From Patescibacteria group bacterium (GTDB lineage Bacteria > Patescibacteriota > Patescibacteriia > Magasanikbacterales > GWA2-37-8), in the NCBI GenBank assembly GCA_004321885.1, contig SCQK01000013.1, positions 1 through 64,000 of the forward strand: DNA of 64,000 nt, given 5' to 3'. The notes beneath the pieces were generated by a model that saw nothing but the letters and a program-made list of their open reading frames with translations, had not been told where the DNA came from and did not search any database. The position numbers and the translations under genes were made by a program. Position 1 is the stretch's first letter, and the number at the start of each line of letters is the position of its first letter. This document shows, one piece after another, positions 869 through 60,769 of this stretch.

Positions 869-1896
869 GATTTTTTAGCCGGCAAAAAAGGCATATCCTG
901 TGGGGCGTTCTCGGGGGCGTCTTGCTTTTAATTTTCTATTTCGCGGTTTTGTCCATAGCCAATGATTTTGCTCACGCGCTTGCCGAATTCCGGCGCCTGT
1001 GGCCGTGGATTTTCTCTCTGGCCGCGGGCTTTGGCGCCCAGGCCGGCCTTTATTCATTTATTAAAACCAGTCTGCGCGAATGCGCCCGCGGCCAAGCGAC
1101 CGGCGTGGCGGCCGGCGCCGGTATTTCGGGCCTATCCATGGCCGCGTGTTGCGCCCATCACCTAACCGACATATTGCCCGGGGTCTTTGGCCTTTCCATT
1201 GCCTCGTCTTTTCTGGTACAATACCAAATGCCCTTCATCTACCTCGGCGTTGGTTCAAACATCCTGGGCATTTTGCATTTTTTGAATTTAATCAAAAGAC
1301 ATTCGCTGTTCGGCGAAAATAAATACCCTTTCTCGTCCTCCCCCTTATTAAGGGGGAGGGAGGTAGGGGTAAATCCTATGCGAAAATTAGCCTACATAGC
1401 CGCCGCGGTTTTGCTGGCGGTTCTCGTTGTTTCTTTCGGCTGGATTAGGGTGAAAGGGCCTGTCGCCGAATACGTTAATGGTATTCGGCGACAGGCCATA
1501 AAATCAAAAAATAATTCAGGCGCGGCTCCGGTTGCGGCGCCGTCTGCGCCAGAGCAAAGCGAGACAGGCGCGCAGTTTGAAACAAAATCAAACGAGGGCG
1601 GGGGACTGTCGGTGGACGCCGCGCCCGTCAGCCTAAGTATGGGGTATCCAACACAAATCAAACTGACTTTTAACACGCATCAGGGCGATTTGAATTTTAA
1701 CCTGCTCATGCAGGCCGCGCTGTTTGACGACAGCGGACGCGTCTACCGTCCGGCGCGCTGGCTGGGAGAAGCAGGCGGCCATCACCTTGAAGGCAGTTTG
1801 GTTTTTCCCCCGCTTAATCCGGGCGTGAAAAAAATTATGCTCAAACTTTTTGACATTTACGACGTGAAAGAACGGGCGTTTGAGTGGAATATATAA
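865..1896 (+). CDS. Membrane protein (multi-TM N-terminal half with a CCAHH motif, then TM-anchored extracytoplasmic beta-rich half); possibly two fused genes
   Basis: ATG at 865 overlaps the stop of the YHS peptide. The ORF continues in frame to 1896. An in-frame GC-rich palindromic repeat (1336-1376) is followed by an SD-spaced ATG at 1378 that begins a new TM helix ([13 protein letters not shown]...). Coupled to copA. Confidence 0.45.
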
Positions 1897-1927
1897 AGTC
1901 TGGACCAAAGCTTACTTACTCCAAATT

Positions 1928-4324
1928 ATGAGAATCACGATTCTCAAAATTTCCGGAATGCACTGCGCCTCGTGCGCCAACACCATTGAACGCGCGTTGA
2001 AAAAAATGCCCGGCGTTAGTTTGGCGCAAGTCAACTTTGTGACCGAAAAGGTAAAAATTGAATTTGACCCAACGCGTTCCACAGAGGAAGATTTCGTCAG
2101 CGCCATTAAACGTTTGGGATACGGCGCCGAGATTGACCACGTTGCCATGGGCCACACAGCGCACGGCGAACAGGCGCCGGACCAGCACGTCGGCCATCGC
2201 GCCATGCCAGGTCCGGCGCATCATGACCATGGCGCCGCGCCTCAATGGCGGAATAAATTTTTTTGGAGCCTGGGCCTGTCTCTGCCCCTGTTCTATTTCA
2301 TGCTGATGCTGTTTTTTGAAATGCCCGCGTCCGGCTTCCTGCGGCCCTATGTGCCGCTCATCTCTTTTATTTTAACCACGCCGGTACAGTTTATTATCGG
2401 CGCCGGTTTTTATCGCAGCGCCTATTTTGCCCTGCGGCGCAAAGCATTTGACATGGACAGTCTCATCGCCATCGGCACCACGGCCGCTTATATCTACAGT
2501 GTGGTAAATTTTGTAAAATATATTTCCGTTTCCGGTTCAATATTGCTCAAAGACGTTCAACTTTCTGAATTATATTTTGAAACCGCCGCCTTTTTGATAA
2601 CCTTCGTTGCGCTGGGCAAGTGGCTGGAGGCCAGGGCCAAAGGCCGCACCTCGGACGCGATACGCAAACTAATCGGGCTAAAACCCAAGACAGCGCGCGT
2701 GAAAAGAAACGGGGAAACTGTTGATATCCCGGCGGACCAAGTGAGGGTCGGCGACATTATCATCGTGCGGCCGGGCGAAAAAATTCCCACTGACGGCCAG
2801 GTCACGAGCGGTTATTCGTCCGTGGACGAATCAATGGTGACGGGTGAGAGCATTCCGGTGGAAAAAAAAGACAATGACCAGGTCATCGGAGCGACCATAA
2901 ACAAAACCGGCAGTTTTGAATTTAAAGCCACTAAAGTCGGCAGTGAAACCGTGCTGGCCCAGATAATCAAATTCATAGAAGACGCGCAGAATTCCAAGGC
3001 GCCGATACAAGCGGTGGCCGATCGGATTTCGGCCTGGTTTGTGCCGGCGGTTATTTTAACCGCTGTGCTTACTTACGGAATTTGGTTTTTTGGTTTTGGC
3101 GCCGGTTGGTCATATAGCCTGATGGCGTTCACGGCCGTGCTGGTCATCGCCTGCCCGTGCGCCCTGGGACTGGCCACGCCCACGGCCATTATGGTGGGCA
3201 CGGGCAAGGGCGCCGAATATGGCATTTTAATAAAGGGCGGCGAACCATTGGAGGCGGCGCAAAAAATTCAGGCGATTGTTTTTGACAAAACCGGCACATT
3301 GACAAAAGGCCAGCCGGAAGTGACAGACATCATCGCCCTGCCAGATGTCAAACTATCAAATGACCAAATTCTTCAGCTGGCCGCGTCAATAGAATTTAAG
3401 TCAGAACATCCGCTGGCCGACGCTGTCGTTAAAAAAGCCAAAGAAAAAAATCTGCCGCTGTTGGAAATTCAAGAATTCAAAACAATCCCTGGGCATGGCG
3501 TAATAAGCGAAATCAGTGGACAAAAAATTCTTCTGGGAAATCGTAAGCTATTGACTGATAATAATTTAGCCGTTCAGCAAATAAACAATGATGCCGCGGA
3601 AAGACTGGAAAAAGACGGGAAAACAGTAATATTTTTAGCGGCCGGCAATGAGCTGGCCGGCCTCATCGCCGTGGCCGATACGTTAAAGGATGGCTCGGCC
3701 GAGGCCGTGGCGCGTCTCGCCAAAAAAGGCGTTGACATATATATGCTCACGGGCGACAATCAGCGCACGGCCGAGGCCATCGCCCGCCAAGCCGGCATAA
3801 AAAATATACTGGCTGAGGTCCTGCCACAAGACAAGGCCGAAGAGATAAAAAAATTACAGCAACGCGGGTTTAAGGTCGCCATGGTCGGCGACGGCATCAA
3901 CGACGCGCCGGCCCTGGCCCAGGCTGATTTGGGCATTGCCATGGGCAGTGGAACCGATATTGCTATGGAAACCGGCGGCATTGTCATGGTGAAAAATAAT
4001 TTGCAGGATGTTTTGACAGCCATTGATTTGAGCCGCCAGACCATGGCTAAAATCAGGCAGAACTTGTTTTTCGCCCTGTTTTATAATGTCGCTGGCATAC
4101 CCATCGCGGCGCGCGCTTTTGCCGCGTTCGGATTCGTGCTGCGGCCCGAGCTGGCCGGGCTGGCCATGGCGCTGTCTTCGGTTTCGGTGGTCGGCAATTC
4201 TCTGCTTCTGCGCCGCTTTAGGCCCGGCCGCTCAAATTGGCTGTCGTTGGTCGCGCCGATAGTTATGACAGCCGTCTTTATTCTATTATTCCTGCTGTTC
4301 GCCCGCTGGAGCGCCAAGATGTAA
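1928..4324 (+). CDS. copA: Copper-translocating P1B-type ATPase
   Basis: N-terminal HMA domain (GMHCASCA), His-rich linker, CPC motif (ACPCALG), DKTGTLT phosphorylation site, GDGINDAP hinge. The ATG at 1928 precedes the HMA domain. Confidence 0.9.
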
Positions 4325-4325
4325 T

Positions 4326-5462
4326 ATGGATTTGCTTTTACATTTGGATGAAATTTTTCTCAAGGGCAAAAATCAAAATTTTTTCATCAGAAAGCTGACG
4401 CAAAATTTGGAAAGCCTGTTCAAGAAAACAAAAGCCGCCCGCGTGGAGGGCGGCATTATTTTGCGTAATTTTTCAGAGGGCGAAATGGCCCGCTTGTCTT
4501 TGGTTCCTGGCATTGCCAATTTCGCGCCGGCGCTGGTGGTTGGTTCGGAGCCGGAGAATATACAAAAGGGAATTAATGAGTTGATTGGCTCATTGTCATT
4601 CAGCAAAAAAACAAAATTTCGCGTTTCGGCCGAGCGCTCGTTTAAGCAGTATCCGTTCACTTCGGCGCAGATGCAAGACAGACTCGGCGATTATATCAGA
4701 AAAAAAACCGGCTGGGGCGTTGCCCTTAAAAATTTTGACGTTGAAATTTGCGTTTCCGTCGGCAAGGACCGGGCGCTGATTTACGCCAACCCGCGGCCCG
4801 GAGCCGGGGGCCTGCCCACCGGTAGTTCGGGCAAAATTTTGTGCCTGCTTTCTGGCGGCTTGGACAGCCCGGTGGCGGCGTATAAGATGATGAAGCGAGG
4901 AGCCGAGGTCGTTCTCATTCATTTTCAAAATCAAACAGCGGCCGACAAAGAAGTAGGCCAAAAAATCATGGACCTCGCGAACGTTTTGTCGCGCTACCAG
5001 CCGCGGGTGAAACTTTTTATGGCGCCATTCGCGAATTTACAGAAAGAAGTGATTATGAAAGTGCCGAGCCAATACCGCATGCTGGCCACGCGGCGGCTAT
5101 TTAACAAAATAGCCGAGCGAATCGCCCGCCAGGAGGGTTGTCTGGCGCTGGCCACCGGCGACAGTCTGGGGCAGGTGGCCTCGCAAACATTGGAAAATCT
5201 TAATGTCATCAATTCAAGCCTAAATTTGCTTTCGCTCGCTCCGCTCATCGGCGAAAATAAATCGGAAATCACGGCCCTGGCGCGGAAAATCAGCACCTTT
5301 GATATTTCCATCCGGCCGTACGAGGATTGCTGTAGTTTATTCGTGGCCAAGCACCCGGAAACCAAGGCACGCTTGAAAGATATTTTACAATACGAGAAAG
5401 GCATAAACCTTGACGCGCTTGACACCAAACAAATTATATCATACTATATTGGTAAGAATTGA
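4326..5462 (+). CDS. thiI: tRNA 4-thiouridine synthase ThiI (THUMP + PP-loop)
   Basis: PP-loop 'LLSGGLDSPVAAY'. ThiI-like length and domain order. Confidence 0.8.
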   Translation: MDLLLHLDEIFLKGKNQNFFIRKLTQNLESLFKKTKAARVEGGIILRNFSEGEMARLSLVPGIANFAPALVVGSEPENIQKGINELIGSLSFSKKTKFRVSAERSFKQYPFTSAQMQDRLGDYIRKKTGWGVALKNFDVEICVSVGKDRALIYANPRPGAGGLPTGSSGKILCLLSGGLDSPVAAYKMMKRGAEVVLIHFQNQTAADKEVGQKIMDLANVLSRYQPRVKLFMAPFANLQKEVIMKVPSQYRMLATRRLFNKIAERIARQEGCLALATGDSLGQVASQTLENLNVINSSLNLLSLAPLIGENKSEITALARKISTFDISIRPYEDCCSLFVAKHPETKARLKDILQYEKGINLDALDTKQIISYYIGKN

Positions 5463-5463
5463 T

Positions 5464-6048: not shown

Positions 6049-6440
6049 TCGGTCTAAAAAGGGAAACGGACTACGCCATACAGCTACTCAATTTTTTGGC
6101 GGCAAAAAAAAAGGGCTTCAGCAGTCTAAAAAAGTTCGCCGACATTTCGGGGATTTCTTTTTGGTTTTTACAAAAAATAGCGCGTAAACTAAGCCTGGCC
6201 GGAATGATAACAGCCGGGCAGGGGATAAAGGGCGGCTACAAATTAAAGTCGGCCAAAAATCTAAACCTGCTGGAAGTGATTAAAGCGATGGAGGGCAGGG
6301 TGGTTTTTGCGCCCTGCCTATGTGAAGACGCGGTTGACTGCGCCGGTAAGAATCGAAAATGCTTCACGAAAGCCGTCTCGGCCAAAATCAATAAAGGTAT
6401 GGTAAAGATGCTGCGGGGAGTGAACATCTATGCTGCCTAA
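6045..6440 (+). CDS. Rrf2-family transcriptional regulator (IscR-like)
   Basis: N-terminal wHTH 'TDYAIQLLNFLA...FSSLKKFADISGISFWFLQKIARKLSLAGMITAGQGIKGGYKL' and a C-terminal Cys cluster. Heads the Fe-S assembly genes. Confidence 0.75.
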   Translation: MIGLKRETDYAIQLLNFLAAKKKGFSSLKKFADISGISFWFLQKIARKLSLAGMITAGQGIKGGYKLKSAKNLNLLEVIKAMEGRVVFAPCLCEDAVDCAGKNRKCFTKAVSAKINKGMVKMLRGVNIYAA

Positions 6441-7665
6441 ACCGAAAAAAAACCGCAACGTATATCTGGACCACGCCGCCACCACGGCTATGGACGAGCG
6501 CGTGCTAAAAGCCATGCGTCCGTATTTTTTGGAGCAATTTGGCAATCCTTCCTCGCTGTACAATCTGGGCAGAACAGCGAACCGCGCTTTGGCATCGGCG
6601 CGGGCAACCATCTCTGCGGCGCTTCACGCTTTGCCGGAAAATATTATTTTCACGAGCGGAGGCACCGAGTCGGACAACTTGGCCATTTACGGCATAGCCC
6701 GCGCGCATCAGAGCCGCGGCCAACACATTATCTCCACGCTGATTGAGCATCATGCTGTTTTAGGTCCGCTGGCAGATTTAAAAAAAGACGGCTGGGACAT
6801 AACCTATGCCGGCGTGAATAAAGAAGGGTTTGTAAGCGCCGATGAAATTATTAAAAAAATTCGCAAAGACACGACGTTGGTTTCCGTGATGTACGGCAAC
6901 AACGAAGTAGGTTCTATTCAGCCCATTGCCGAAATCGGACGCGCTATTTTGAAATACCGAAAGGAAAATAACACGGCTTACCCGTATTTTCACACCGATG
7001 CCTGCCAGGCCGCCGGCGCCCTAACTTTGGACGTGGAAAAATTACATGTTGACCTGATGACGATTAACGGCAGTAAAATTTACGGCCCAAAGGGGGCGGG
7101 GATTTTGTACTTGCGCCGCGGCGTAAAAATCAAACCCATGATTTTGGGCGGGGGCCAGGAAAAACGGACGCGCTCCGGCACTGAGAACGTGCCCGCCATT
7201 ATCGGACTGGCCGAGGCGCTGAAGCTGGCGCAAGCGGACCGGATTAAAGAAGGCGACAAACAAAAAAAATTATGCTCTATGCTTTGGAATGAAATTCAGA
7301 AAAAAATTCCCAAGGTGAAATTGAACGGGCCGGAAATAGGGGACGGGCGCCTGCCCAATAATTTGAACGTTACTTTTATGGATGTGGAGGGCGAAGCGCT
7401 TTTGCTGTACCTGGACGAATACGGCGTGATGTGCTCCACTGGTTCGGCCTGCACCTCGGAATCGCTGGAGCCATCGCATGTGCTGATGGCCATGGGACTG
7501 CCCTACGAGTATGCCCACGGCAGTTTGCGCTTTACTTTCGGGCGGGAAAACAGCCTGGCGGACGTGACGTATCTGATGAAATATCTGCCGGCGATTGTGG
7601 AGCAGTTGCGCGAGCTGTCGCCGGTGAGCATCGGGTTCAAACAGCACGCGAAATACAAGAAATAA
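6430..7665 (+). CDS. iscS: Cysteine desulfurase (IscS/NifS class)
   Basis: PLP-lysine region 'INGSKIYGPKGAGILY' and catalytic-Cys loop 'SACTSES'. Confidence 0.85.
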   Translation: MLPKPKKNRNVYLDHAATTAMDERVLKAMRPYFLEQFGNPSSLYNLGRTANRALASARATISAALHALPENIIFTSGGTESDNLAIYGIARAHQSRGQHIISTLIEHHAVLGPLADLKKDGWDITYAGVNKEGFVSADEIIKKIRKDTTLVSVMYGNNEVGSIQPIAEIGRAILKYRKENNTAYPYFHTDACQAAGALTLDVEKLHVDLMTINGSKIYGPKGAGILYLRRGVKIKPMILGGGQEKRTRSGTENVPAIIGLAEALKLAQADRIKEGDKQKKLCSMLWNEIQKKIPKVKLNGPEIGDGRLPNNLNVTFMDVEGEALLLYLDEYGVMCSTGSACTSESLEPSHVLMAMGLPYEYAHGSLRFTFGRENSLADVTYLMKYLPAIVEQLRELSPVSIGFKQHAKYKK

Positions 7666-7682
7666 ATGTTAAAATCCAAATT

Positions 7683-7765
7683 TCCAATGTCAAATCAATA
7701 TTAAATTTCCAATGTCCAATTTGGACATTGGACATTGATTGAAAATTGGTCATTGGGATTTGAAA
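7683..7765. promoter_or_regulatory. Array of five CAATGTC/GACATTG half-sites including a perfect palindrome CCAATGTCC-N5-GGACATTGG; putative operator upstream of nifU
   Basis: Seen directly: 'tttccaatgtcaaatcaat...tttccaatgtccaatttggacattggacattgattga...ggtcattgg'. Lies between iscS and the nifU-like gene, downstream of the Rrf2 regulator. Confidence 0.45.
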
Positions 7766-7777
7766 ATTTAAAATTTT

Positions 7778-8455
7778 ATGTCTAAAAAAGTAAAGAAAAC
7801 TGATGATTTATCTGAACCAGTAGATATCCGCTCAAGTAGTGGGGGTGGCTGGCTGTATTCCGATGTCGTGAAAGACCACTTTTTTAATCCGCGTAATTTT
7901 ATGCAATATGACGAGGAGGAAAAGTTTGAGTATAATGGTATGGGGCGGGTGGGTTCGCCGGCCTGCGGCGACGAGATGGTGATGTGGCTGAAAATAAACC
8001 CGCAAACGGAAAAAATCACAGACTGCCGCTGGCGTACGTTTGGCTGCGGCTCGGCCATCGCCTCCACCTCGGTACTCTCCGAGATGTTGGTGGAAAAAGG
8101 CGGTATGCCGATAGACGAGGCGCTCAAATTAAAACCCCAGGATATTTTGGCGCGTTTGGGCGGTTTGCCCGACCGCAAGGTGCACTGCTCGGTGCTTGGG
8201 GATAAAGCCCTGCAGGCGGCTGTCAATGATTATTTCCGCCGCACCGGCCAGCACGCGCGCGTGCTCACGGCCGGAGCCAAGGTGATTGACGCGGCTTTGA
8301 ATGTTACGGACAAAGATATAGAGGAAGCAGTTTTGGAGGGGGCGCGGGTTTTGGAAGATGTGCAGAAGAAATTAAAAGTGGGGGTGTTTAACAAAGAATC
8401 GGTGCCGCAGATAGAAGAGCTCTTACGGTTTTATACGGAGAAATATTACGGATAA
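7778..8455 (+). CDS. NifU/IscU-like Fe-S scaffold protein with C-terminal extension
   Basis: Scaffold cysteines in 'SPACGDEMVMWL', 'FGCGSAIASTS' and 'HCSVLGDKA'. Confidence 0.75.
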   Translation: MSKKVKKTDDLSEPVDIRSSSGGGWLYSDVVKDHFFNPRNFMQYDEEEKFEYNGMGRVGSPACGDEMVMWLKINPQTEKITDCRWRTFGCGSAIASTSVLSEMLVEKGGMPIDEALKLKPQDILARLGGLPDRKVHCSVLGDKALQAAVNDYFRRTGQHARVLTAGAKVIDAALNVTDKDIEEAVLEGARVLEDVQKKLKVGVFNKESVPQIEELLRFYTEKYYG

Positions 8456-8467
8456 AATCCTGCTGGC

Positions 8468-8674
8468 TTGATATTACATTATATGATTCCACAAATAGAC
8501 GAGGAAAAATGTATTGGCTGCGGCACGTGTCCGGCGCTGGCGCCCGGCACTTTTCGCATGCGTGACGATAACAAGGCCGAGGTGTATAATGAAAAAGGGG
8601 ACGAGGACGAGGCGATAAAAATGGCCGCCGAAGCCTGCCCCACCCAAGCAATTTTAATTCTCCCTCCACTTTAG
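8468..8674 (+). CDS. 4Fe-4S ferredoxin (single cluster)
   Basis: 'CIGCGTCPALAP...EACP'. The real start may be the internal Met at 8483. Confidence 0.65.
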   Translation: MILHYMIPQIDEEKCIGCGTCPALAPGTFRMRDDNKAEVYNEKGDEDEAIKMAAEACPTQAILILPPL

Positions 8675-8698
8675 AAGGGGAGGGATAAACATTATTAT

Positions 8699-9425: not shown

Positions 9426-10151
9426 ATGCTTTACATTGTCGCGACACCCATCGGCAACCTAGGCGACATCACTTTGCGCGCCTTAGAGACACTCAAAAAT
9501 GTTGATTTTATCTTGTGCGAGGACACGCGCGTGACAAAAAATTTGCTGGCGCATTATAAAATAGAAAAGCCGCTTATCAGTTATCACCAGCACACCGACG
9601 CTCGCAAGACGAAAGAGATCATCGGCCTGCTGGAAAGCGGCAAGAATTTGGCGCTCGTAACCGATGCGGGCACGCCGAGTATTTCCGACCCGGGGGCACA
9701 CAGTTTCCTCCCACTTTTAGGGGGAGGACAGGCCACCACACCAAAGAATTTGGTGTGGTGGCAGGGGAGGGGGTATTCGGTCGTTCCCATTCCAGGTCCA
9801 TCCGCGGTTGTCGCCGCTCTTTCCATTTCCAGCCTCCCCACCGACAAATTTGTGTTCATGGGTTTCCCGCCGCACAAAAACAAGCGACAAAAGTTTTTCA
9901 AAGAAGTGGCCGAGGCCAAACACACAGTCGTGTTCTACGAATCCAGCCACCGCATAAAAAAATGCCTGGCCGAACTGGCGCAGGTCTTGTCGCCAAACAG
10001 ACAAGTGGTTATCTGCCGCGAGCTGACCAAAAAATTTGAGAGCGTTTACCGCGGCACAATTTCCGAAATCGCGTCTCAAACCATTCCCGATAAAGGAGAG
10101 TTTGTGATAGTTATATCCCCCCTTTATAAGGGGAGGACTAAGGATGGGTAA
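9426..10151 (+). CDS. rsmI: 16S rRNA (cytidine1402-2'-O)-methyltransferase RsmI (tetrapyrrole-methylase fold), carrying an in-frame repeat insertion
   Basis: 'MLYIVATPIGNLGDITLRALETLKNVDFILCEDTRVT'. A GC-rich composite palindrome at 9704-9775 is in frame, encoding 'LPLLGGGQATTPKNLVWWQGRGYSVV'. Confidence 0.8.
   Translation: MLYIVATPIGNLGDITLRALETLKNVDFILCEDTRVTKNLLAHYKIEKPLISYHQHTDARKTKEIIGLLESGKNLALVTDAGTPSISDPGAHSFLPLLGGGQATTPKNLVWWQGRGYSVVPIPGPSAVVAALSISSLPTDKFVFMGFPPHKNKRQKFFKEVAEAKHTVVFYESSHRIKKCLAELAQVLSPNRQVVICRELTKKFESVYRGTISEIASQTIPDKGEFVIVISPLYKGRTKDG
9704..9775. repeat. Composite GC-rich repeat: C/G hairpin + 31-nt perfect palindrome GCCACCACACCAAAGAATTTGGTGTGGTGGC + GGGGAGGGGGTA (inside rsmI)
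   Basis: Seen directly. A near-identical 31-nt palindrome (1 mismatch) recurs at 59667-59697. Confidence 0.7.
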
Positions 10152-13394: not shown

Positions 13395-13437
13395 CCCCTC
13401 CCTAACCCTCCCCTTAGCAAGGGGAGGGGAAACACTT
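13395..13437. repeat. GC-rich C-tract/G-tract hairpin repeat carrying the SD, immediately before the atpB ATG (family copy)
   Basis: 'cccctccctaaccctccccttagcaaggggaggggaaacactt|ATG'. Same architecture at 1336-1376, 8660-8686, 10116-10148, 17207-17249, 21164-21204, 38877-38933. Confidence 0.7.
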
Positions 13438-17204: not shown

Positions 17205-17249
17205 TTTTCTCCCCCTTTATAAGGGGGAGACGAAGAGGGGGTAAACATT

Positions 17250-18212: not shown

Positions 18213-20664
<2,452 letters not shown>

Positions 20665-21103: not shown

Positions 21104-21137
21104 AAAGAAAAACCCGGCCTTGTGCCGGGTTTTTTAA
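21104..21137 (+). terminator. Rho-independent terminator of the atp operon
   Basis: 'aaacccggccttgtgccgggtttttt': GC stem plus T-run directly after the atpC stop. Confidence 0.8.
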
Positions 21138-21210
21138 TCTGGTATAGTAAGTAAAGCAAAGTTTTCCTCCCCTTGATAAGGGGAGGACTAAGGAGGGGTA
21201 ATAATGCGCT

Positions 21211-21342
21211 ATGGAAAAATGCGCCAAATGTAGCATGCCGCTGGAAGCCGAGGAGGTCACTTGCGCGTGCAATGACACGCTTTGCGTTCATTGTTGCGAT
21301 TGCGGGTCTGACTGCGGATGCGAATGCGCCCAGAAAAAGTAG
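21211..21342 (+). CDS. Unannotated 43-aa cysteine-rich peptide (11 Cys): metallothionein-like or zinc-ribbon mini-protein
   Basis: My own translation: MEKCAKCSMPLEAEEVTCACNDTLCVHCCDCGSDCGCECAQKK*. Preceded by the repeat-element SD (AGGAGGGGTAATA). A 9-codon uORF (ATG 21205) overlaps its start. Confidence 0.45.
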   Translation: MEKCAKCSMPLEAEEVTCACNDTLCVHCCDCGSDCGCECAQKK

Positions 21343-24804: not shown

Positions 24805-27800
24805 ATGGCGGAGCTAAACAAATCGCAAAAATCGGCGGTGGAGTATGTTGGCGGACCGCTACTGATAGTGGCGGGCGCTGGCACGGGCAAAACCACTGTC
24901 ATCACCAAAAAAATCGCCCACCTGATAGAGCAAAACCTGGCCAAGCCCGAGGGAATTTTGGCGTTGGCTTTTAACGACAAAGCGGCCGATGAAATCCAGA
25001 CCCGCGTTGACGCCGAACTGGAGCTGGGCTACGTCGAAACGCATATTTCCACGTTCCACGCTTTTTGCCAAAAACTTTTGGAAACATACGGGCTGGATAT
25101 TGGCATCTCCAATCAGTTCAAAGTACTCACGCAAACAGACGCCTGGATTTTGGTGCGCAAAAATCTGGATAAGTTCAATCTTGATTATTATCGTCCGCTC
25201 GGCAATCCCACGCGCCATATTCACGAACTCATCAAACATTTTTCCAAATGCAAAGACGAACTGATTACTCCGAATGAATATCTGGAATACGCCGAGAACG
25301 TGGAATTAGACAAAGACAACAAAAACACTGGCGAGCGCACGCGTCTGACAGAGGTGGCCAACGCTTATCACGCCTATAATCAGCTGTTGCTGGACAACAA
25401 CGTCTTGGATTTTGGCGATTTGATTTTTTACGCGAACAAACTATTGGCCGAACGGCCGAAAATTTTAGATGGTTTGCGCAAGCAATTCAAATATATTTTG
25501 GTGGATGAGTTTCAGGACGTGAATTACGCGCAGTATGAGCTCGTGCAAATGCTCTCCCACCCCCCCTCCGTCCCCCCCTCAGGCAGGGGGGGAGGACATG
25601 GAGCCCAACTCACGGCGGTAGGGGATGATGACCAGAGTATCTACGCTTTTCGCGGGGCCTCGGTGTCCAATATCTTGCGCTTCAAAGATGATTATCCGAA
25701 GTGCAAAGAAATCGTGCTGACCGAAAACTATCGCTCGGGACAAAAGATATTGGACATCTGTTACAAATCAATTCAAAACAATAATCCTGACCGGTTGGAA
25801 GCGAAATTAAAAATTGATAAAAAGTTGAAAGTGGCTACCCCCCCTTCGCCCCCCCCTTATCAAGGGGGGGAAGTAATCCATATCCACTGCGCCACCTTGG
25901 AGCAGGAGGCGAGCGCGGTGGCCCAAGAAATATCACGGCTTAAAAAAAGCGAGTCCGAAGCGAACTGGGACGATTTCGCGATTTTGGTGCGCGCCAACAG
26001 CCACGCTGATATTTTTGTAAACGCGCTTGCCAATGCCGGCATTCCCTGTGAGTTTTGGGCCGCCAGCGGCTTGTATCATCAGCCCATCGTATTGGATTGC
26101 TTTAATTTTTTCAAACTCATCACCAATTATCACGAATCAACGGCAATTTACCGCCTCCTGCGCCTGCCGTTTGTAAACTTCAAGGAAAACGACTTACAAA
26201 AAATCACGTATAACGCCCACAAAAAAACCGTTTCGTATTACGAGGCGCTTAAACGCGGCGCCGAGTTTGGTTTATCAACCGAAGGCGCCGTAATCGCGGA
26301 TAAAATCATTTCTCTTATTCACGACGGCATGAAATCCGGCCGCTTTGAAAAACCACACCGCGTGCTTTACGACTTTTTGGACAAGAGTGGCTATCTGAAA
26401 TATCTGGCGCACGAAGAAAACGAGGGCAACGCCAATGTTATCCGACAAATCTACCAGCTGACCGACTTTTTTGAGTTTATAAAAAAGTACGAGCAGGCTA
26501 GCCCCGACGCCAACGTTTACGGCCTGATGGAACACATGGAATATCTGCTTGACTCTGGCGAAGAAGGCGCCATGCGCCAACAAAACGATACGCCCGATTC
26601 GGTGAACATTTTTACCGTGCACAAGGCCAAGGGTTTGGAGTTCAAGTATGTTTTTATGGTCAATCTGGTGGAAGACCGTTTTCCCTCGCGCAAAAAATCC
26701 GAGCCTATTGAAATCCCTCTGCCGCTGGTGAAAGAAAAACTGCCCGAGGGAGACAGCCATCTGCAGGAAGAGCGCCGCTTGTTTTACGTGGCGGCTACGC
26801 GCGCCAAAGAGCGCTTGTATTTTACCAGCGCCGACGACTACGGCGGAGCGCGCAAGAAAAAAATCAGCCGCTTTTTGGATGAGTTGGGGTATAAAGCTGG
26901 CTCCATAGTCCCGCAGGGCTATGGAGCCAAGATGCAGTATGTCTCCATAGGATTGCCTGCGGCAACCACTATGGAGCCAGCGAAGGGTGAGTTTGTTTAC
27001 GCCCCGCCCAAGATTTTTTCCTTTTCGCAAATCAAATCGTACAATAATTGTCCGTATCAGTACAAACTCGCCAGCATTATTCACTTACCGCAAAAGCAAA
27101 GTCACTATTTCAGTTTTGGCAACAGCATGCATAACACCTTACTGGAGTTTTACAAGCGGGTACAGGCGTTAAATAACAGCCGGCAGGAAAGTTTGTTCGG
27201 AATTACAAATGGCTCCGCAGGCCGCGCGGCGGGCACTATCCGCCTACGCGGCACTATGGAGCCAACCGTGAACAGTGTAAACAACGAAGTAAAAGCCCCG
27301 CCCTTGGATGAACTTCTGGGAATTTATCAAAAAAATTGGATTGACGAGTGGTATTTGAGCAAAAAACAAAAAGATGAATACTTTAGCGAAGGCAAAAAAA
27401 TGCTGGCCGCTTTTTACGAATCCAATAAGGACAGGTGGACGGTGCCCGTGGCGCTGGAAGGCGCGTTCAAAATCAAAATAGGGGAGTACTTTTTGGCCGG
27501 ACGCATGGACAGGGTGGATAAACTGCCAGACGGTTCGTTGGAAATTATTGATTACAAAACCGGCGAAAGTAAAGAAACGGCCGCGGGCGAAGAAAAAGAG
27601 CAGTTGATGATTTACCAGATGGCGGCCGAGCAGTTGTCACGCTACAAAGAAATTGGCCGCGCCGGCAAACTCACCCTGTATTATTTACGCGATAATTTGC
27701 CGGTGTCTTTTATCGGCGAGGAAAAAGAACTGGAAAAAATAAAAACAAAACTGCTTGGGGTGATGGAAAAAATAATTGCCGGCGACTTTCGCGCCACGCC

Positions 27801-38874: not shown

Positions 38875-38933
38875 TACCCCTCCTATCCTCCACCTTAATT
38901 AAGGGGGGGTAAGGTAGGGGGGTAAATATTATT

Positions 38934-40049: not shown

Positions 40050-40939
40050 AAAAATTTTATCGCTCACAAACCAATTTCAAACAATACAAACCGTACATTA
40101 GTAGACGGAGGCGGACGGTTAATCATGGCGTAAAAAAAATATTTATCATCGCGGTAGTCGCGCTGGCGACCGCCGGATGGCTCTGGCTCTTGTTGCGCCC
40201 ACCTTATTTTCAGATTCAAACCGTTTCCATAGAGGGTTTGGAAATAATTGACAGCGAGGAAATTCATTTACTCGTCAGGAATGAATACTTGAGTAAAAAA
40301 AGCTGGCTGGGTCTGCTCGCCAATGATAATTATTTTTCCGCCAGCGCCGCAAAAATAGAAAGGTTGATTGCGGATAAATACCCGCTCAATTTTCTTTCGG
40401 TTAAAAAATTATTTCCGAGAAGCATTTCCATATCACTAAAAGAAAAAATTTCCACCGTCATTTTAGACAACGGCAAAGATTATCTCCTGCTTGACGCAGA
40501 CGGCGGGTTGCTCAAAAGCCTCGGCGCGGCCGCTGTTTCAAATTCTACGCCGGTCGCGACCACGAGCGCGAGTACGACTATTTCCGCGCGCGCGCCGGAT
40601 TACTCCAAATTCAAAATTTTATATCCAAAATTTCCGCTGCTACTGTATGAAATGGAAGGACAAATTTCAGCTGACGGAAAAAATTTTCTATCAAGCAAAA
40701 TAATCAGTTCAGTTCTTGAACTTTCCCAAAGGCTAACCGCGGAAGCGGTGGAGACCAGGTATTTTGAGATGAACAGCCCGACGCACATCACAGCGCACGC
40801 GGCTAGACCAAAACAAATTATATTTGCTCTTAACGCTGACTTGGAACCACAAATGGAAAAACTGCGCATAATCATGCGCGCGAAAAAACCAAAAGAATAC
40901 GTTGACCTGCGCTACGGGGAAAGGGTGTTTTGGAAGTGA
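40046..40939 (+). CDS. ftsQ: FtsQ/DivIB-like cell-division protein (TM + POTRA)
   Basis: N-terminal basic tail and TM. 'FQIQTVSIEGLEIIDSEEI' POTRA-like. Confidence 0.6.
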   Translation: MKKFYRSQTNFKQYKPYISRRRRTVNHGVKKIFIIAVVALATAGWLWLLLRPPYFQIQTVSIEGLEIIDSEEIHLLVRNEYLSKKSWLGLLANDNYFSASAAKIERLIADKYPLNFLSVKKLFPRSISISLKEKISTVILDNGKDYLLLDADGGLLKSLGAAAVSNSTPVATTSASTTISARAPDYSKFKILYPKFPLLLYEMEGQISADGKNFLSSKIISSVLELSQRLTAEAVETRYFEMNSPTHITAHAARPKQIIFALNADLEPQMEKLRIIMRAKKPKEYVDLRYGERVFWK

Positions 40940-41088
40940 GGGGAATAGAGGAGGGGGTGTGGACAAGTGCGTTTGACCATATTTATAAAGAGTTATATAA
41001 TTGAGTATAATATCTCTTACACTCAATTCCGTCGCAGTAAAACTGCTCCGGAAGTGTAAGAGTCGGTTAAGTTAGTATTCTATTACGT

Positions 41089-49850: not shown

Positions 49851-49888
49851 CCCCCCCTCCTTTCGGAGGAGGGGGCGAGGGGGTGGTG
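49851..49888. repeat. GC-rich palindromic repeat-family copy after the clpB stop (likely bidirectional terminator between clpB and typA)
   Basis: 'ccccccctcctttcggaggagggggcgagggggtggtg'. Confidence 0.5.
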
Positions 49889-55969: not shown

Positions 55970-56032
55970 TTCGTTCGCTGTCATTCTAGCCCCTGCCTAC
56001 CGGCAGGCAGGCGCGAGCAGGAATCCCACACT

Positions 56033-57922
56033 ATGCTTCTGCAAATTATCCCCGCACGGAGAATGCCTTTTTCTCTTCCGTTTTTGGATTACGCGGCTCC
56101 CGCTGAACTGGAAGCGCGCGTCAAAATCGGCCAGCTGGTGAAAATTCCGTTTCGCTCGCGCGAAGAATTTGGCATTATTAAATCAATCGGCGGCGATGCG
56201 CCGCCAAAAAAAGTCAGGCCCATTTTGGAAATTTTTTATGATACGCCTCTTCTGTCGCAGGCGCAATTAAATTTTTTAGAAGAGATATCGGCTTTTTACG
56301 GCACGCCCTTGTCTTTTCTGTTAAAAACCAATCTGCCGCCGCTCTCGGAAAAAAAATTAAAAAAAGAACTGGACAAAAAAAACTTCAGGTCCGGCGCGGC
56401 GGTCAGTAAAAAACCTAAAAAGCCAGGGGTGTTTTATTACGCCGACAAAGGAGAAAAACAAAAACTATTTATTGACGCGCCGGCTAAACGAGGACAAACT
56501 TTAATTATAGCGCCCGAATTGGAGCAAATTACCGAAATATGGAATCTTTTGTCCGAAGAGCGGCGCGCCAAGTGCGCGGCCATTTCAGGCCGACTAAGCG
56601 AAAAACAATTTTTCGCCGTCTGGATGGATATTTTTTTTGGACGCAAAAACATCGTCATCGGCACGCGCCGGGCACTGTTTTTGCCCTGGCGAAACTTGAC
56701 GCGCGTAATCATTGACGACGAAGCCAATGAAAGCCATAAAAGCTGGGACATGGCCCCGCGCTTTCACGCCAAAGACGCGGCCCTGTTTCTGGCCGCCAAG
56801 CACGGCGCGGCTCTCCAAATTATGTGCCACACGCCCTCGGTGGAAACGTATTTTTTCGCGCAAAAGAACGTTTACAAAACAAAAGACGCGCCCAAAACGT
56901 TCGCTGACTCTGCTACCATCGTGGATATGTGCGGGGAACGTAGGGCCGGCAATTACACGTTTATCAGCCAATACTTGCGCGACAAAATCACGGCTCTAAA
57001 CGGAGACGCCTTTATTTTTCTCAACCGCAAAGGCGCCGCCGCGGCCGTGGGTTGCCGCGATTGCGGCAATGTCATAAAATGTCCGTCTTGCGGCCGCTCG
57101 CTGGTGTATCACGAAACCGATAAATCATTGCGTTGCCATTTTTGTAAAACCCTGAGCCGCATGCCCCCGTCTTGCGCGGTTTGCCGTGGCGTAAATATGG
57201 CCTTATACGGCATTGGCACCCAGCTCGCCGAAAACACCCTGCGCAAGCTCGCCCCTGACAAGCGAGTTATCCGCATTGATTCGGACGACGGCGAGCTTAG
57301 CGAGTTAAAAGCGCCGGGAAATAAAATTATCATCGGCACGCAACTGGCCTGGAATAAAATTGACTGGTCAGCGCTCAAACTGGCCGCTTTTTTGGACGCT
57401 GACTCGTCTCTTTTTATTCCCGAATTTAAGATAGATGAAAATGTTTGGTATCTACTGCGAGACGCGCAGTTTCGTTTGGGCTGTCATTCCGGCCTTGTGC
57501 CGGAATCCACAATCAATCCGGAATTAATCATTCAAACAGGCCATCCGGAATATCCTGTTTTTTCCGGGCTGGCCAAGCCGGCCAATTTTTATGAACAGCA
57601 GATAAAAATCAGACAGCTCTTGGGCTTTCCGCCTTTTAATTTTTTGCTTAAAATATACAACAGCGAGCCGGGCGAAGCGCTGGCCAAAAGCCAGGCCGAG
57701 GCTTTTTTGGCCGAACTGCGCGCCTTGACAAGAGGCATGCCGCGGGTTAATATAACCGGCCCGCTGGCGGCGCCGTTTCGCCGCGGCAAAGATTACTCGC
57801 AAATAATTTTGCTAAAAATCGGGTTTGCCAACTACAAGCGCGACACGGCCAAAATTTCGTCTTTGGCGGCAACGCGCGGCTGGAAAGTAGACCCAAATCC
57901 AAATACCTTATTAGCCCTATGA
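56033..57922 (+). CDS. priA: PriA-like primosomal protein N' with degenerate helicase motifs
   Basis: N-terminal 3'-DNA-binding domain 'LDYAAPAELEARVKIGQLVKIPF'. Four-CxxC zinc module 'CPSCGRS...CHFCKT...CAVCRG'. Where Walker A would sit it reads 'DAPAKRGQT' (no GK[TS]) and motif II reads 'IIDDEANESH' (not DExH). Confidence 0.75.
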   Translation: MLLQIIPARRMPFSLPFLDYAAPAELEARVKIGQLVKIPFRSREEFGIIKSIGGDAPPKKVRPILEIFYDTPLLSQAQLNFLEEISAFYGTPLSFLLKTNLPPLSEKKLKKELDKKNFRSGAAVSKKPKKPGVFYYADKGEKQKLFIDAPAKRGQTLIIAPELEQITEIWNLLSEERRAKCAAISGRLSEKQFFAVWMDIFFGRKNIVIGTRRALFLPWRNLTRVIIDDEANESHKSWDMAPRFHAKDAALFLAAKHGAALQIMCHTPSVETYFFAQKNVYKTKDAPKTFADSATIVDMCGERRAGNYTFISQYLRDKITALNGDAFIFLNRKGAAAAVGCRDCGNVIKCPSCGRSLVYHETDKSLRCHFCKTLSRMPPSCAVCRGVNMALYGIGTQLAENTLRKLAPDKRVIRIDSDDGELSELKAPGNKIIIGTQLAWNKIDWSALKLAAFLDADSSLFIPEFKIDENVWYLLRDAQFRLGCHSGLVPESTINPELIIQTGHPEYPVFSGLAKPANFYEQQIKIRQLLGFPPFNFLLKIYNSEPGEALAKSQAEAFLAELRALTRGMPRVNITGPLAAPFRRGKDYSQIILLKIGFANYKRDTAKISSLAATRGWKVDPNPNTLLAL

Positions 57923-58413
57923 TTCTACCCATCTTAACCGAACCAAATCCCCTTTTGCACAAACAGGCAAAGCCGATTGCGGATGCGCGCATAATCTCTG
58001 CCGAGATGAAAAAACTCGCCACCGACCTTATTGAAACCATGCGCGCCAAAGACGGAGTGGGATTGGCCGCCACCCAAGCGGGACGCCTGGAACAAATTTG
58101 CGTAGTGGCGGTTGATTTAGAAAAACAGGAAAAACGCGAAATCGTTTTAATTAATCCGCGCTGGGAAAAAATCGGCCTAAGGAAAGAAACTGACGATGAA
58201 GGCTGTTTGTCCGTGCCTGAAATTTTCGGCAAAGTGAAGCGCTATAAAAAAATCCGCGTGTTCGCGAAAAATTTGCTCGGCAATAATTTGGAATTTGTCG
58301 CCGAGGACCTGCTCGCGCGAATCATCCAGCACGAGGTGGATCATTTGAACGGAATTTTATTCACAGAGAAAGCCAAGGGTTTGCATAAAATTGACAAAAG
58401 CGCCGGTAAATAG
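57919..58413 (+). CDS. def: Peptide deformylase
   Basis: 'GVGLAATQAG', 'EGCLSVP', 'HEVDHLNG'. Confidence 0.9.
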   Translation: MILPILTEPNPLLHKQAKPIADARIISAEMKKLATDLIETMRAKDGVGLAATQAGRLEQICVVAVDLEKQEKREIVLINPRWEKIGLRKETDDEGCLSVPEIFGKVKRYKKIRVFAKNLLGNNLEFVAEDLLARIIQHEVDHLNGILFTEKAKGLHKIDKSAGK

Positions 58414-58425
58414 CGCGACGAATTT

Positions 58426-59352
58426 ATGACTATTAGCACAATATTTTTTGGAACACATAATTTTGCGGCGAAAATTTTGGCAGAGCTTATCAAAAACGGC
58501 TCTTTTGACATTACACTGGCAGTCACCCAGCCGGACAGACCGGCGGGAAGAAAACAAGACCTGGAAATTCCGGCCGTGAAACTTTTAGCCGAAAAAAACA
58601 ATATTCCGGTCGCCCAACCGGCCGGTTTGTCATTGCGAGGAGTAATCCCTTTTCCTGATTTCTATGACCTGAACATCCTCTGCCAATACGGAAACATAAT
58701 CACCAAAGAAATTTTAGACAAATCAAAATACGGTTCAATCAATGTCCACCCTTCGCTATTGCCAAGATACCGCGGGGCCTCACCCATCCAATCCGCGCTC
58801 GTAAATGGCGAAACCGAAACCGGCGTTTCCATAATTTTGATGGATGAGGAGCTTGACCATGGCCCGATTTTGGCGCAAAAAAAAATGAACATTGGCGATG
58901 ATGATAATTTTGTTTCTTTGAGCGCGAAATTGTCGTATCTATCCGCCCCTCTTTTGGTAAATACGGCCCTTGATTTTGTAAACGGAAAAATTACTCCCGG
59001 GCCACAAAACCACGACCAAGCGACTTTTTGCAAACAACTCTCGCGCGAGGATGGTAAAATTGATTTTAATAAATCCGCCAAAGAAATTTACAATCAGTGG
59101 CGCGGCCTCGCGCCGTGGCCCGGGGTTTGGGCAAGCTGGGAAAACAAACGTCTCAAATTTATTAATATCAGCCCCCTTCCCCTTTATAAGGGGGATGTGG
59201 GGAGGGGGTATGTAAGGGGGCACAAACTCATCATCGCCTGCGCCCAAGGCGCTATTGAAATTTTAGAACTCCAACTTGAAGGAAAAAAGCCCATGGTCGC
59301 GGCCGCGTTTATAAACGGCTATGGCAAAATAAACGGCGCTATTTTACGCTAA
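58426..59352 (+). CDS. fmt: Methionyl-tRNA formyltransferase, with two in-frame repeat insertions
   Basis: 'IFFGTHNFA', 'NVHPSLLPRYRGASPIQ'. Inserts: 58629-58650 ('SLRGVIP') and 59171-59220 ('SPLPLYKGDVGRGYVRGH'). Confidence 0.85.
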   Translation: MTISTIFFGTHNFAAKILAELIKNGSFDITLAVTQPDRPAGRKQDLEIPAVKLLAEKNNIPVAQPAGLSLRGVIPFPDFYDLNILCQYGNIITKEILDKSKYGSINVHPSLLPRYRGASPIQSALVNGETETGVSIILMDEELDHGPILAQKKMNIGDDDNFVSLSAKLSYLSAPLLVNTALDFVNGKITPGPQNHDQATFCKQLSREDGKIDFNKSAKEIYNQWRGLAPWPGVWASWENKRLKFINISPLPLYKGDVGRGYVRGHKLIIACAQGAIEILELQLEGKKPMVAAAFINGYGKINGAILR

Positions 59353-59353
59353 T

Positions 59354-60769
59354 ATGCAGTCCAAAAAACTTTTTCTTGTTTTTTTAGGGCTCTACGCGCT
59401 CCTGCGCGTCTTTTCCTATTTCTTCAGCCCTGAAACCCCGCTTTACTCGGCCAATCCGGTTAATACTTTGGCCGCCGCGCTGGTTCTTTTCACGGCGATT
59501 TATTTTCTGCTCAAAAAAGACCAGCGCGGCTGGCTGATTGTGGCCGGTGAGCTAATTCTCGGCGGCGGTGGAAATTACCTGGCTGTCGGGCCATTATCCC
59601 TACGGACGTCGCTTCTTTTTGCTTCACTGCTAATTTACTTCGCTCAACTTAAAAGGGGAGGGGCAGGCCACCACACCAAAGATTTTGGTGTGGTGGCAGG
59701 GGGTGGGGTTTGGGCAATATTTTTACTGATTGTAGTCGCCATCATCGCGGCCGGCCGCGGCCTATATCTGGGCCACGCTACTCGCCAAATTTTTTCCGAC
59801 ACGCTTCCCTATTTTTTCCTGCTTTATTATTTTCCGCTTCGCGATTTAATTAAATCTGACAATTTCAAGTCCGTCTGTAAGCAAATGCTCTTCGCGGCTA
59901 TTGTTGGCAACGCGCTTTTTATGCTTCTTACCTATGCCGGCTTTTCCAGCGGCCTGTTCGCTTTGCAGGATGAGTATTACCATTGGTTCCGCGATGTGGC
60001 TCTGGGTAAAATTACCGACATCGGCTTTAATTCCTTTCGCATAATTTTAGACGAACATTTATTGCTCGTGCCGCTGCTGCTGGCGTTTCTTTCGTCTGTC
60101 ATTGCGACCCCCTCATCAAGTGTGGGGCTAAAGGCTGCCACGCTCGCAATGACATTCGTCCTCTCTATTAATATTACCCGCATTTACATTCTGGCGTTCG
60201 TTGTCGGTCTGCTGTTCTTATTTTCAAAAACAAACTGGAGGCGCTGGCTGGCAATTTCATCGGCTTCGCTGGTTTTATTTTTTATCTTTTTCACCTCGCT
60301 TCATCTTATTTCCAGCCGCGGCCAAAATTTGGGCTGGGAATATTTTGGCCTGCGCCTGCAAAGCGTAATGGCGCCGCAAATAGAAGAAAGTTCACTTTCG
60401 CGCGTATTGCTTTTGCCCAAAATTTGGGAAAAAATAAAAGCCCATCCCCTCTTGGGTAATGGACTGGGCGACACGGTCACTGTTTACAGCCCGGCGCTCA
60501 AACAAACCATTACCACTCCGCACTTTGATTGGGGCTATCTGGAAATCTGGGCGGAAGTGGGCTTACTCGGTTTGTTTATCTGGATATTATTGCTCACAAA
60601 AATAATTCCCTCCCCTATCAGGGGAGGGACAGAGGGTGGAGTAACGGTCGCGCCACTCGCCTCCCTTCTTGTCATCAATCTCACCTCACCTGCTATTTTC
60701 CACGCTTTCGGCGTTATCTTTCTTACTTTTTACTTCACTCATTATGGCTCAAATCAAAATTCTGATTGA
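59354..60769 (+). CDS. Polytopic membrane protein, O-antigen ligase/Wzy-like, with three in-frame repeat insertions
   Basis: About 12 TM helices. Inserts at 59654-59714, 60107-60164 and 60606-60640. Family assignment is weak. Confidence 0.45.
   Translation: MQSKKLFLVFLGLYALLRVFSYFFSPETPLYSANPVNTLAAALVLFTAIYFLLKKDQRGWLIVAGELILGGGGNYLAVGPLSLRTSLLFASLLIYFAQLKRGGAGHHTKDFGVVAGGGVWAIFLLIVVAIIAAGRGLYLGHATRQIFSDTLPYFFLLYYFPLRDLIKSDNFKSVCKQMLFAAIVGNALFMLLTYAGFSSGLFALQDEYYHWFRDVALGKITDIGFNSFRIILDEHLLLVPLLLAFLSSVIATPSSSVGLKAATLAMTFVLSINITRIYILAFVVGLLFLFSKTNWRRWLAISSASLVLFFIFFTSLHLISSRGQNLGWEYFGLRLQSVMAPQIEESSLSRVLLLPKIWEKIKAHPLLGNGLGDTVTVYSPALKQTITTPHFDWGYLEIWAEVGLLGLFIWILLLTKIIPSPIRGGTEGGVTVAPLASLLVINLTSPAIFHAFGVIFLTFYFTHYGSNQNSD

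Follow-up and report, generated by a model that had tools for sequence, protein, structure and literature searches.

A dispersed family of miniature palindromic repeats, resembling REP and Rickettsia palindromic elements, between and within the genes of a Patescibacteria genome

Rickettsia palindromic elements (RPEs), which are about 100–150 bp long, AT-rich and restricted to Rickettsia, are found in a reduced genome both in spacers and in frame inside housekeeping open reading frames (ORFs), where the added peptides are tolerated and where orthologues differ in carrying them. Repetitive extragenic palindromic sequences (REPs) and their doublets, the REPINs, are multicopy, GC-rich, imperfect palindromes of 20–40 nt with an extragenic bias, some of them lying in ORFs (PMC3733652, PMC3116915); among those inside ORFs many occupy repair genes, and a stop codon may be provided by the terminus of a REP (PMC3733652). 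Transposable elements of the miniature inverted-repeat type (MITEs), such as those of Coxiella (PMC5896051), the enterobacterial RU (PMC2759123) and the cyanobacterial Nezha, are non-autonomous and structured, lie in and between genes and give rise to new peptide segments. Here we describe short palindromes with a C-rich and a G-rich arm that are scattered over 64,000 nucleotides (the window) of contig SCQK01000013.1 from a Patescibacteria group bacterium, a member of the Candidate Phyla Radiation (CPR). With a probability of about 75%, we take them to be a family of miniature palindromic repeats, non-coding and non-autonomous, which is of the REP/MITE/RPE kind and native to this Patescibacteria lineage. 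The family works like REP or RPE, yet it is assigned to neither and is a new sighting in Patescibacteria; literature searches by sequence string and keyword returned no description of these elements in CPR or cyanobacteria.

The size and copy number of the elements are those of REPs, with 13 copies in 64 kb and GC-rich stems of 7–10 bp. The REP tag GTAG stands beside only two of the 13 hairpins (1337 and 38888; copies are named by the first position of the hairpin, Table 1) and CGTC beside none, the conserved end of the window elements being GGGGTAA. Unlike REPIN doublets the window copies are singlets, the nearest pair lying about 280 nt apart in the same orientation. REPIN-like doublets were seen in relatives (loci from other genomes carry L numbers): pyrimidine-first hairpins, often as inverted doublets, are present within RsmI in L210 and L211, within TatD in L121, which is otherwise AT-rich, and within the atpD/atpC spacer in L128. 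The window arms also differ from REPs in being strictly pyrimidine then purine, and no REP-associated tyrosine transposase (RAYT) was seen in the window. Compared with RPEs, the elements are shorter (25–50 bp), have C/G homopolymeric arms, are found in another phylum and often take the place of a loop larger than themselves; judged from established knowledge of RPEs, and not by alignment, the two share no sequence similarity. MITEs are usually 70–300 bp long with defined terminal inverted repeats and target-site duplications, whereas here the whole element is an inverted repeat. TA is present at both ends of 38888 and 10117 but not of 13406 and 49853, the empty sites in relatives are too diverged for the junctions to be read, and no parent insertion sequence with matching ends was found in the window.

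A sequence-only reading of this DNA had listed 15 sites of a dispersed palindrome family, and all 15 hold sequence as described. Its count of at least 15 copies stands for 13 full hairpins, whereas 59654–59714 has a degenerate C arm and 40936–40966 only the G half. A full hairpin has a 5′ arm of 7–10 nt made of C and T only, an AT-rich loop of 3–5 nt and a 3′ arm of G and A only, typically YCCYCCCCTT-NNN-AAGGGGRGGR, and the whole element is about 25–50 bp long, with composites of up to ~70 bp. An extra G tract, 3–5 nt further downstream and ending GGGGTAA, accompanies the hairpins at 1337, 9706, 10117, 17208, 21165, 49853, 59179 and 60607, and a complementary extra C tract lies upstream of those at 13406, 25571 and 25850. 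Only 38888 has both and forms a complete bipartite palindrome; in most copies there are three tracts and not a symmetric four, and the orientation is set only by the side that bears the extra one. No additional copies were found in the window by a profile built from the known copies.

The motif CCCCTTNNNAAGGGG, with at most one mismatch, was found eight times in the window when 0.19 occurrences were expected from dinucleotide shuffles, and none of 100 shuffles reached eight. The reverse layout GGGG-N7-CCCC was not present in the window at all, and among stems of at least 7 bp 11 were pyrimidine-then-purine and none purine-then-pyrimidine; other G and C runs are depleted in the window. The similarity between copies extends beyond the arms. 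A 15-nt core, CCCCTTTATAAGGGG, recurs unchanged at 10119, 17212 and 59179, and the copies at 10117 and 21165 agree at 32 of 36 positions including the non-palindromic spacer ACTAAGGA. Two copies contain a nested 32-nt palindrome, GGCCACCACACCAAAGAnTTTGGTGTGGTGGC, with the G arm on one side of it and the second G tract on the other, and a single loop base differs between the two. Near-identical copies of 36–60 nt at unrelated loci, spacers included, indicate copying from a template. Independent Logan assemblies of SRR8426592 were 100% identical to the window over 57496–59682 and 60752–64000, a range that takes in the Fmt copy together with the beginning of the 59654 copy and leaves the 60607 copy outside, and a sequencing artefact was ruled out by this identity. 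One Logan contig ends within the nested palindrome, as is expected of a repeat. CRISPR was ruled out as well, the copies having no regular spacing.

Table 1. Palindromic elements of the 64-kb window with their coordinates, orientation (side bearing the extra tract), structure and location.
Copy	Hairpin start	Position	Orientation	Structure	Location
1	1337	1337..1372	+	hairpin CCTCCCCCTT-ATT-AAGGGGGAGG (1337-1359), second G tract GGTAGGGGTAA	in frame in ORF 634-1896
2	8661	8661..8685	.	hairpin TCCCTCCACTT-TAG-AAGGGGAGGGA, one mismatch, no extra tract	NifU/SIMPL spacer
3 (composite)	9706	9706..9775	+	hairpin 9706-9728, nested palindrome GGCCACCACACCAAAGAATTTGGTGTGGTGGC 9731-9762, G tract GGGGAGGGGGTA	RsmI residues 94-117
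4	10117	10117..10151	+	hairpin, ACTAAGGATGGGTAA	end of RsmI
5	13406	13395..13429	-	upstream C tract CCCCTCCCTAA, hairpin 13406-13428	fills atpZ/atpB spacer
6	17208	17208..17244	+	hairpin TCTCCCCCTT-TAT-AAGGGGGAGA, CGAAGAGGGGGTAA	fills atpA/atpG spacer
7	21165	21165..21201	+	hairpin TCCTCCCCTT-GAT-AAGGGGAGGA, CTAAGGAGGGGTAA	3′ of atpC terminator, 5′ of 43-residue Cys-rich ORF
8	25571	25553..25602	-	upstream C tracts, hairpin 25571-25593	in frame in UvrD/AddA-like gene (LSHPPSVPPSGRGGGHG)
9	25850	25838..25872	-	upstream C7 tract, hairpin 25849-25870 (C8/G7)	in frame in UvrD/AddA-like gene (TPPSPPPYQGGE)
10	38888	38877..38925	.	CCCCTCC TAT CCTCCACC TTAATTAA GGGGGGG TAAGGTA GGGGGG TAA; four tracts	fills serS/alr spacer
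Doubtful or partial		40936..40966	+	G tracts only (GAGGGGAATAGAGGAGGGGGT), no C arm; missed by profile	overlaps ftsQ-like stop codon
11	49853	49851..49888	+	hairpin CCCCCCCTCC-TTTCGG-AGGAGGGGG, CGAGGGGGTGGTG	between convergent clpB and typA
12	59179	59172..59220	+		within Fmt (SPLPLYKGDVGRGYVRG)
13 (composite)		59654..59714	+	degenerate C arm, G tract, nested palindrome 59666-59697, second G tract	Wzy_C residues 101-121
14	60607	60607..60640	+	hairpin TCCCTCCCCT-ATC-AGGGGAGGGA, CAGAGGGTGGAGTAA; fold z -3.5	in Wzy_C (IPSPIRGGTEGGV)

Six of the 13 hairpins are located in intergenic DNA, although only 3.3% of the window is intergenic when the elements are discounted (P = 1.8e-6), and three copies make up the entire spacer, the spacers filled in this way being 43–59 nt long. 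Words made only of pyrimidines or only of purines cannot hold TAA, TAG or TGA on either strand, and through the elements 56 of 84 reading frames are open, with four to six of the six frames open in the coding copies, which use loop variants without TAA. The arms encode Pro/Ser/Leu and then Gly/Arg/Glu. Survival of the element inside genes is explained by these stop-free arms together with the residues for which they code.

Syntenic relatives were found by a metagenome scan with AtpG and share the order RsmI-MetG-CvpA-TatD-atp operon-ABC-UvrD. The closest relative available is 63–78% identical in protein, and AtpG of L120 is 78% identical. The atpA/atpG spacer, filled by an element in the window, measures 45 nt there as against 3–9 nt in L120, L124 and L128, and the atpZ/atpB spacer is empty in L121, L123 and L124. 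Unrelated palindromes of about 100 nt were present in the atpA/atpG spacer of L121, L122 and L123. In RsmI, the copy at 9706 amounts to a net insertion of 15 residues when compared with L121 and with the E. coli protein (5hw4). The UvrD/AddA-like gene contains insertions of 12 residues (copy 8) and 5 residues (copy 9) at its elements when compared with L124, and the Wzy_C copy at 60607 adds 4 residues relative to L201. At the 3′ end of RsmI the element swaps 'K-stop' for PLYKGRTKDG-stop as the last 10 codons, the TAA being supplied by GGGTAA (RsmI of L121 ends in VILISK-stop). The alignments of RsmI and UvrD orthologues place the insertions at the elements and show them to be lineage-specific, and such in-frame segments in housekeeping genes support the parallel with RPEs that had been drawn from the letters of the window.

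Gly/Pro-rich peptides had also been proposed as additions to Fmt and Wzy_C. Net insertions were found for RsmI and for both UvrD copies, whereas the Fmt copy changes the length by at most one residue compared with orthologues and the first Wzy_C copy not at all compared with L201; in these two a pre-existing loop was replaced. RsmI and Wzy_C read their composite copies in different frames (QATTPKNLVWWQGRG and GHHTKDFGVVAGGGVW), so that the shared entity is the DNA and not a peptide module. At the Fmt site the orthologues of L203, L204/L205 and L201/L202 each carry their own palindrome variant, namely TCCTCCCCCT-ACAAG-AGGGAGGA in L203, CCCTCTCCTT-C-AAGGAGAGGG in L204/L205 and a decayed L204 form in L201/L202, and in L201 the spacer copy and the Fmt copy share the TCTC type. 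From these sequences the Fmt site appears to be either a shared hotspot or an old insertion that was homogenised towards each genome's own family. Either possibility agrees with a repeat family, and independent local evolution agrees with neither.

A wider set of orthologues was compared at the loop between the DPG and IPGPS markers of RsmI. Among 120 orthologues ~55% had the basal length of 28–31 residues between the markers, and about 45% contained inserts of 5–44 residues. Inserts of the C/G type were PLFKEG, SPLPRG, PPRPLLERGG and SPSYQEG. Other recurrent motifs (VILSEAKN..., VIPAKAGIQ...RGND and AKQSP...PRND) are presumably translations of other palindromic repeats that are common in environmental bacteria. 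The RsmI loop is an insertion hotspot for several palindrome families across Magasanikbacteria-like CPR. The atpA/atpG spacer could be measured in 64 relatives and was 0–36 nt long in most, while nine closer, CPR-like relatives contained a lineage-specific palindrome of 66–144 nt. Among L120–L145 two classes of this spacer were found, one of 0–19 nt and one with the 66–144 nt palindrome, which implies that several palindrome families colonise the same junction in different CPR genomes.

The element behaves like small selfish DNA and not like a translation switch. Its unit is a pyrimidine arm, a short AT-rich centre and a purine arm, usually with an extra G tract ending in TAA or, alternatively, an upstream TTA followed by a C tract. 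The DNA itself would be copied and the copies placed in new positions, most likely by a transposase that acts in trans and recognises the folded hairpin. Purifying selection would subsequently leave only the harmless insertions, those in very short gene spacers, in permissive surface loops and at protein termini. Inside genes, stop-free arms coding for loop-forming residues would favour survival, and only the frames and loop variants without TAA would persist.

Several observations speak against this explanation. No transposase or RAYT gene was detected with Pfam among the about 60 ORFs of the 64-kb window, and clustering of the ORFs around at least 118 pattern-matched loci (see below) revealed no recurrent transposase or neighbouring protein. 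Neither a target-site duplication nor an insertion boundary could be clearly made out, the empty sites available for comparison being too diverged. Presence/absence polymorphism within a population was not seen, the closest relative is only 63–78% identical in protein, and differences between L209 and L210 were rejected as polymorphism, as they were due to masking Ns. Three coding copies (Fmt, the first Wzy_C copy and partly the second UvrD copy) change the protein length far less than the length of the element, so that a simple insertion would need an accompanying deletion, or gene conversion was involved. Finally, the hairpin is kept at the Fmt site in four genomes, which could reflect selection for structure.

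It is improbable, though it deserves consideration, that the spacer copies are kept as RNA hairpins of the operons, acting as 3′ stabilisers or processing barriers that would, for example, allow more alpha than gamma subunit to be made from atpA/atpG; the origin would still be selfish and the use would have come later. In E. coli, REPs act as mRNA stabilisers. The predicted stability of the window hairpins (-17 to -30 kcal/mol) is consistent with such a role, as is the stable, unrelated palindrome at atpA/atpG in nine of the 64 relatives mentioned above. However, L120, L124 and L128, which are among the closest relatives, manage with a spacer of 3–9 nt, and elements are present in coding regions and between convergent genes as well. 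The recurrence in spacers may only reflect how few neutral landing sites exist in a genome that is 96% coding.

The sequence-only reading had favoured translational control. The G tract would serve as Shine-Dalgarno (SD) sequence, the C arm would sequester it as a mimic of the anti-SD, and melting of the hairpin would tune initiation in the manner of an RNA thermometer. For six or seven copies the end lies 5–14 nt before an ATG and most G tracts contain GGAGG or GAGG, yet we consider this role very unlikely. In the window, 50 of 59 genes (~85%) lack GGAG, GAGG and AGGA alike over the 30 nt that precede the start, so that a GGAGG in the G arm being the only SD of a gene carries no weight. The window leaders are AT-rich (...ATTATG), and among genes not beside an element an SD-like motif was found in 6 of 53, about the level of chance. 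None of 17 genes of the relative L201 had an SD-like motif at SD distance; the only match, GAGG at -20 of Wzy_C, lies in L201's own element, and the genes of S9, L13, L17, RpoA, S4, S11 and S13 had no such motif in the 30 nt upstream. Judged from these leaders, the clade starts translation essentially without SD.

The spacing of the G tracts and the predicted folds argue in the same direction. The distance to the ATG had been given as 6–10 nt; measured from the last G run it was 8, 14, 12, 8, 8, 5 or 12, and 11 nt, including the 14 nt between the 8661 copy and ATG 8699. The nearness of the spacer copies to a start codon follows from spacers so short (43–59 nt, wholly filled) that any insertion ends near an ATG. 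The 10-bp hairpin between C arm and G arm dominates the predicted RNA folds, at about -17 to -30 kcal/mol. The fold places the G tract nearest to the ATG within the stem only at 13406; at both 17208 and 21165 the start-proximal tract is left unpaired, as is the AUG. The orthologous leaders of atpB and atpG in relatives lack the element, and about half of the copies lie in ORFs or between convergent genes. ROSE and fourU thermometers are similar in that a pyrimidine stretch can pair with a GGAGG-like stretch upstream of the start codon. They differ in that the present host does not use SD sequences, the C arm usually pairs with a tract other than the start-proximal one and nothing is conserved at orthologous leaders. 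That GGAGG and CCTCC look like SD and anti-SD follows from the G-run and C-run composition, and the proposed regulatory role was not upheld.

A function as non-B DNA or RNA (G-quadruplex, i-motif or cruciform) that acts on replication, transcription or recombination, or as a protein-binding site, is highly improbable. When G-quadruplex energies were enabled, a quadruplex was preferred over the hairpin for 59179, 49853 and the cyanobacterial consensus GGGGAGGGTTAGGGTGGGG, and the three-tract layout sets two G-rich segments side by side. The hairpin was still preferred at 1337, 17208, 21165, 38888 and 9706, and several copies have only two usable G runs. Moreover, the copies show no positional logic relative to promoters, canonical terminators are separate (21108–21134), and the presence or absence of elements among relatives argues against an essential role. 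That the hairpins arise in place by mutation bias or template switching at quasi-palindromes, or are only homogenised by gene conversion without insertion, would suit the Fmt and first Wzy_C copies, which sit in pre-existing loops without net length change, and the Fmt site filled in four genomes with a variant of their own, but it is hardly credible in view of the clean insertions of 12–15 residues, the filled and empty spacers and the near-identity of 36–60 nt copies, non-palindromic spacers included, at unrelated loci.

Some established classes of palindrome were rejected. The hairpins are not intrinsic terminators, as they are not followed by a T run (for the 49851 copy on neither strand), and the canonical terminator at 21108–21134 is separate. 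Integron attC sites were tested with RYYYAAC/GTTRRRY; the ends found were TTACCCC/GGGGTAA, the flanks are syntenic housekeeping genes and the only tyrosine recombinase is XerC-like. Rfam 15 gave no match at gathering score, either within the window or across the elements of 10 loci.

To place the family among other phyla, one genome per species was scanned with the exact pattern CCCCTTNNNAAGGGG-N8-13-GGGGTAA, for which ~26 chance matches were estimated. At least 118 loci were obtained, and among the matches listed most were from cyanobacteria (Nostoc, Microcoleus, Pseudanabaena, Chamaesiphon and others). The others among the matches listed were from Saccharibacteria, Falkowbacteria, Nitrospirota, Nitrospinota, Planctomycetota, Deltaproteobacteria, Deferribacteres, Armatimonadota and Gammaproteobacteria. 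The palindromes of cyanobacteria and other phyla (consensus TTCCCTCCCCTTnnnAAGGGGAGGGTTAGGGTGGGGTAA) have the same layout as the window elements, a C arm, TT-NNN-AA, a G arm, a spacer of 3–5 nt and a G tract with TAA, often with a complementary TTACCCC tract upstream; 19 of the bases shared with the window were forced by the search pattern, and the elements are too short and of too low complexity to prove common descent. In contrast to the window copies, the cyanobacterial ones are mostly two-hairpin units of about 85 bp. Nitrospirota contained several copies per 8-kb locus, Saccharibacteria and Falkowbacteria single full copies, and in L015 a nested hairpin occupies the same spacer position as in the window composites. 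The non-cyanobacterial matches are taken as real elements on account of features that the pattern did not force, namely longer complementary arms, the complementary TTACCCC upstream, several copies per 8 kb and the nested hairpin of L015. Viral contigs gave three matches to the element pattern and none to the nested palindrome, and hence no evidence of phage carriage. In the Gammaproteobacteria metagenome-assembled genome of L089 a tandem array with a 193-nt period and two C-run/G-run hairpins per unit was observed at about 7400–8000, and in L083 (Nitrospirae) an element with identical 40-nt flanks was present three times within 1.6 kb.

We regard it as doubtful, though worth stating, that all of these belong to one very widespread superfamily of ultra-small, pyrimidine-then-purine bipartite palindromes with TTACCCC...GGGGTAA ends in Patescibacteria, Cyanobacteria, Nitrospirota, Planctomycetota and others, which would have spread horizontally, be served by one hairpin-recognising enzyme and, in CPR genomes, be a major source of new loops in essential proteins.

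The window has a G+C content of 48.6% and a coding fraction of ~96%. The assignment to a CPR-like lineage was borne out, as its Fmt and RsmI match NCBI entries for 'Patescibacteria group bacterium' with 100% identity, and Candidatus Magasanikbacteria are the nearest relatives that bear a name. The earlier gene identifications proved broadly correct by Pfam, which supports a copper ATPase, NifU, SIMPL, RsmI, MetG, TatD, the atp operon, the UvrD/AddA-like helicase-nuclease, SerS, Alr, FtsQ-like, XerC-like, ClpB, TypA, Def, Fmt and Wzy_C.

Some of the genes that carry elements showed further features. ORF 634–1896, in which copy 1 contributes a stretch of 13 residues and ends 8 nt before the internal ATG at 1378, is stop-free across the element (fold -30.5 kcal/mol, z -3.3); a new transmembrane segment is encoded after the ATG, as is a DUF5643-like domain, and the ORF may represent two genes fused via the 1337 element. 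It also contains an unrelated in-frame palindromic insert at 1455–1499 with a 19-bp stem. In the UvrD/AddA-like gene two unrelated palindromic in-frame inserts were observed at 26898–26929 and 27211–27262, with arms TGGCTCC...CTATGGAGCCA; one of them accounts for 19 residues compared with L124 and folds at -43 kcal/mol. In total this gene holds four palindromic inserts of at least two families. At 25838–25870 the same repair gene has C7, C8 and G7 homopolymer runs in frame. In other bacteria, homopolymers this long are prone to slippage, and by analogy those in the UvrD/AddA-like gene could slip and make it phase-variable.

Other observations concern the neighbourhood of the elements. The Cys-rich ORF of 43 residues (MEKCAKCSMPLEAEEVTCACNDTLCVHCCDCGSDCGCECAQKK) at 21211–21342 lies upstream of an HhH-GPD glycosylase gene. 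Between atpG and atpD, within the atp operon, there is an ORF of 358 residues with a Fic/DOC domain (18213–19289, + strand). In the five relatives in which both genes were located (L120, L121, L122, L124 and L128) the gap from atpG to atpD is ~18–180 nt and leaves no room for it, and from this comparison the ORF seems to be a lineage-specific gene inserted into this essential operon. A 30-nt palindrome, AATTGAGTATAA-TATCTC-TTACACTCAATT, at 40999–41028 between the ftsQ-like and xerC-like genes coincides with the maximum of the cumulative GC skew (about 40–42 kb) and with a switch in gene orientation, and it may be a dif site at the terminus of replication.

Patescibacteria, whose tiny genomes are densely packed, usually count as streamlined. 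The present family indicates that they nevertheless host miniature palindromic repeats, and that with spacer DNA so scarce these repeats end up in essential genes, where loops and C-termini are remodelled. For annotation this means that repeats can yield SD-like motifs, spurious fusions such as ORF 634–1896 and low-complexity Pro/Gly segments in CPR proteins, and for assembly that they break contigs. Should the likeness across phyla reflect common descent, it would imply an unrecognised and very widespread system that mobilises elements of less than 50 bp. In protein evolution, such repeats readily supply conserved enzymes with insertions and deletions.

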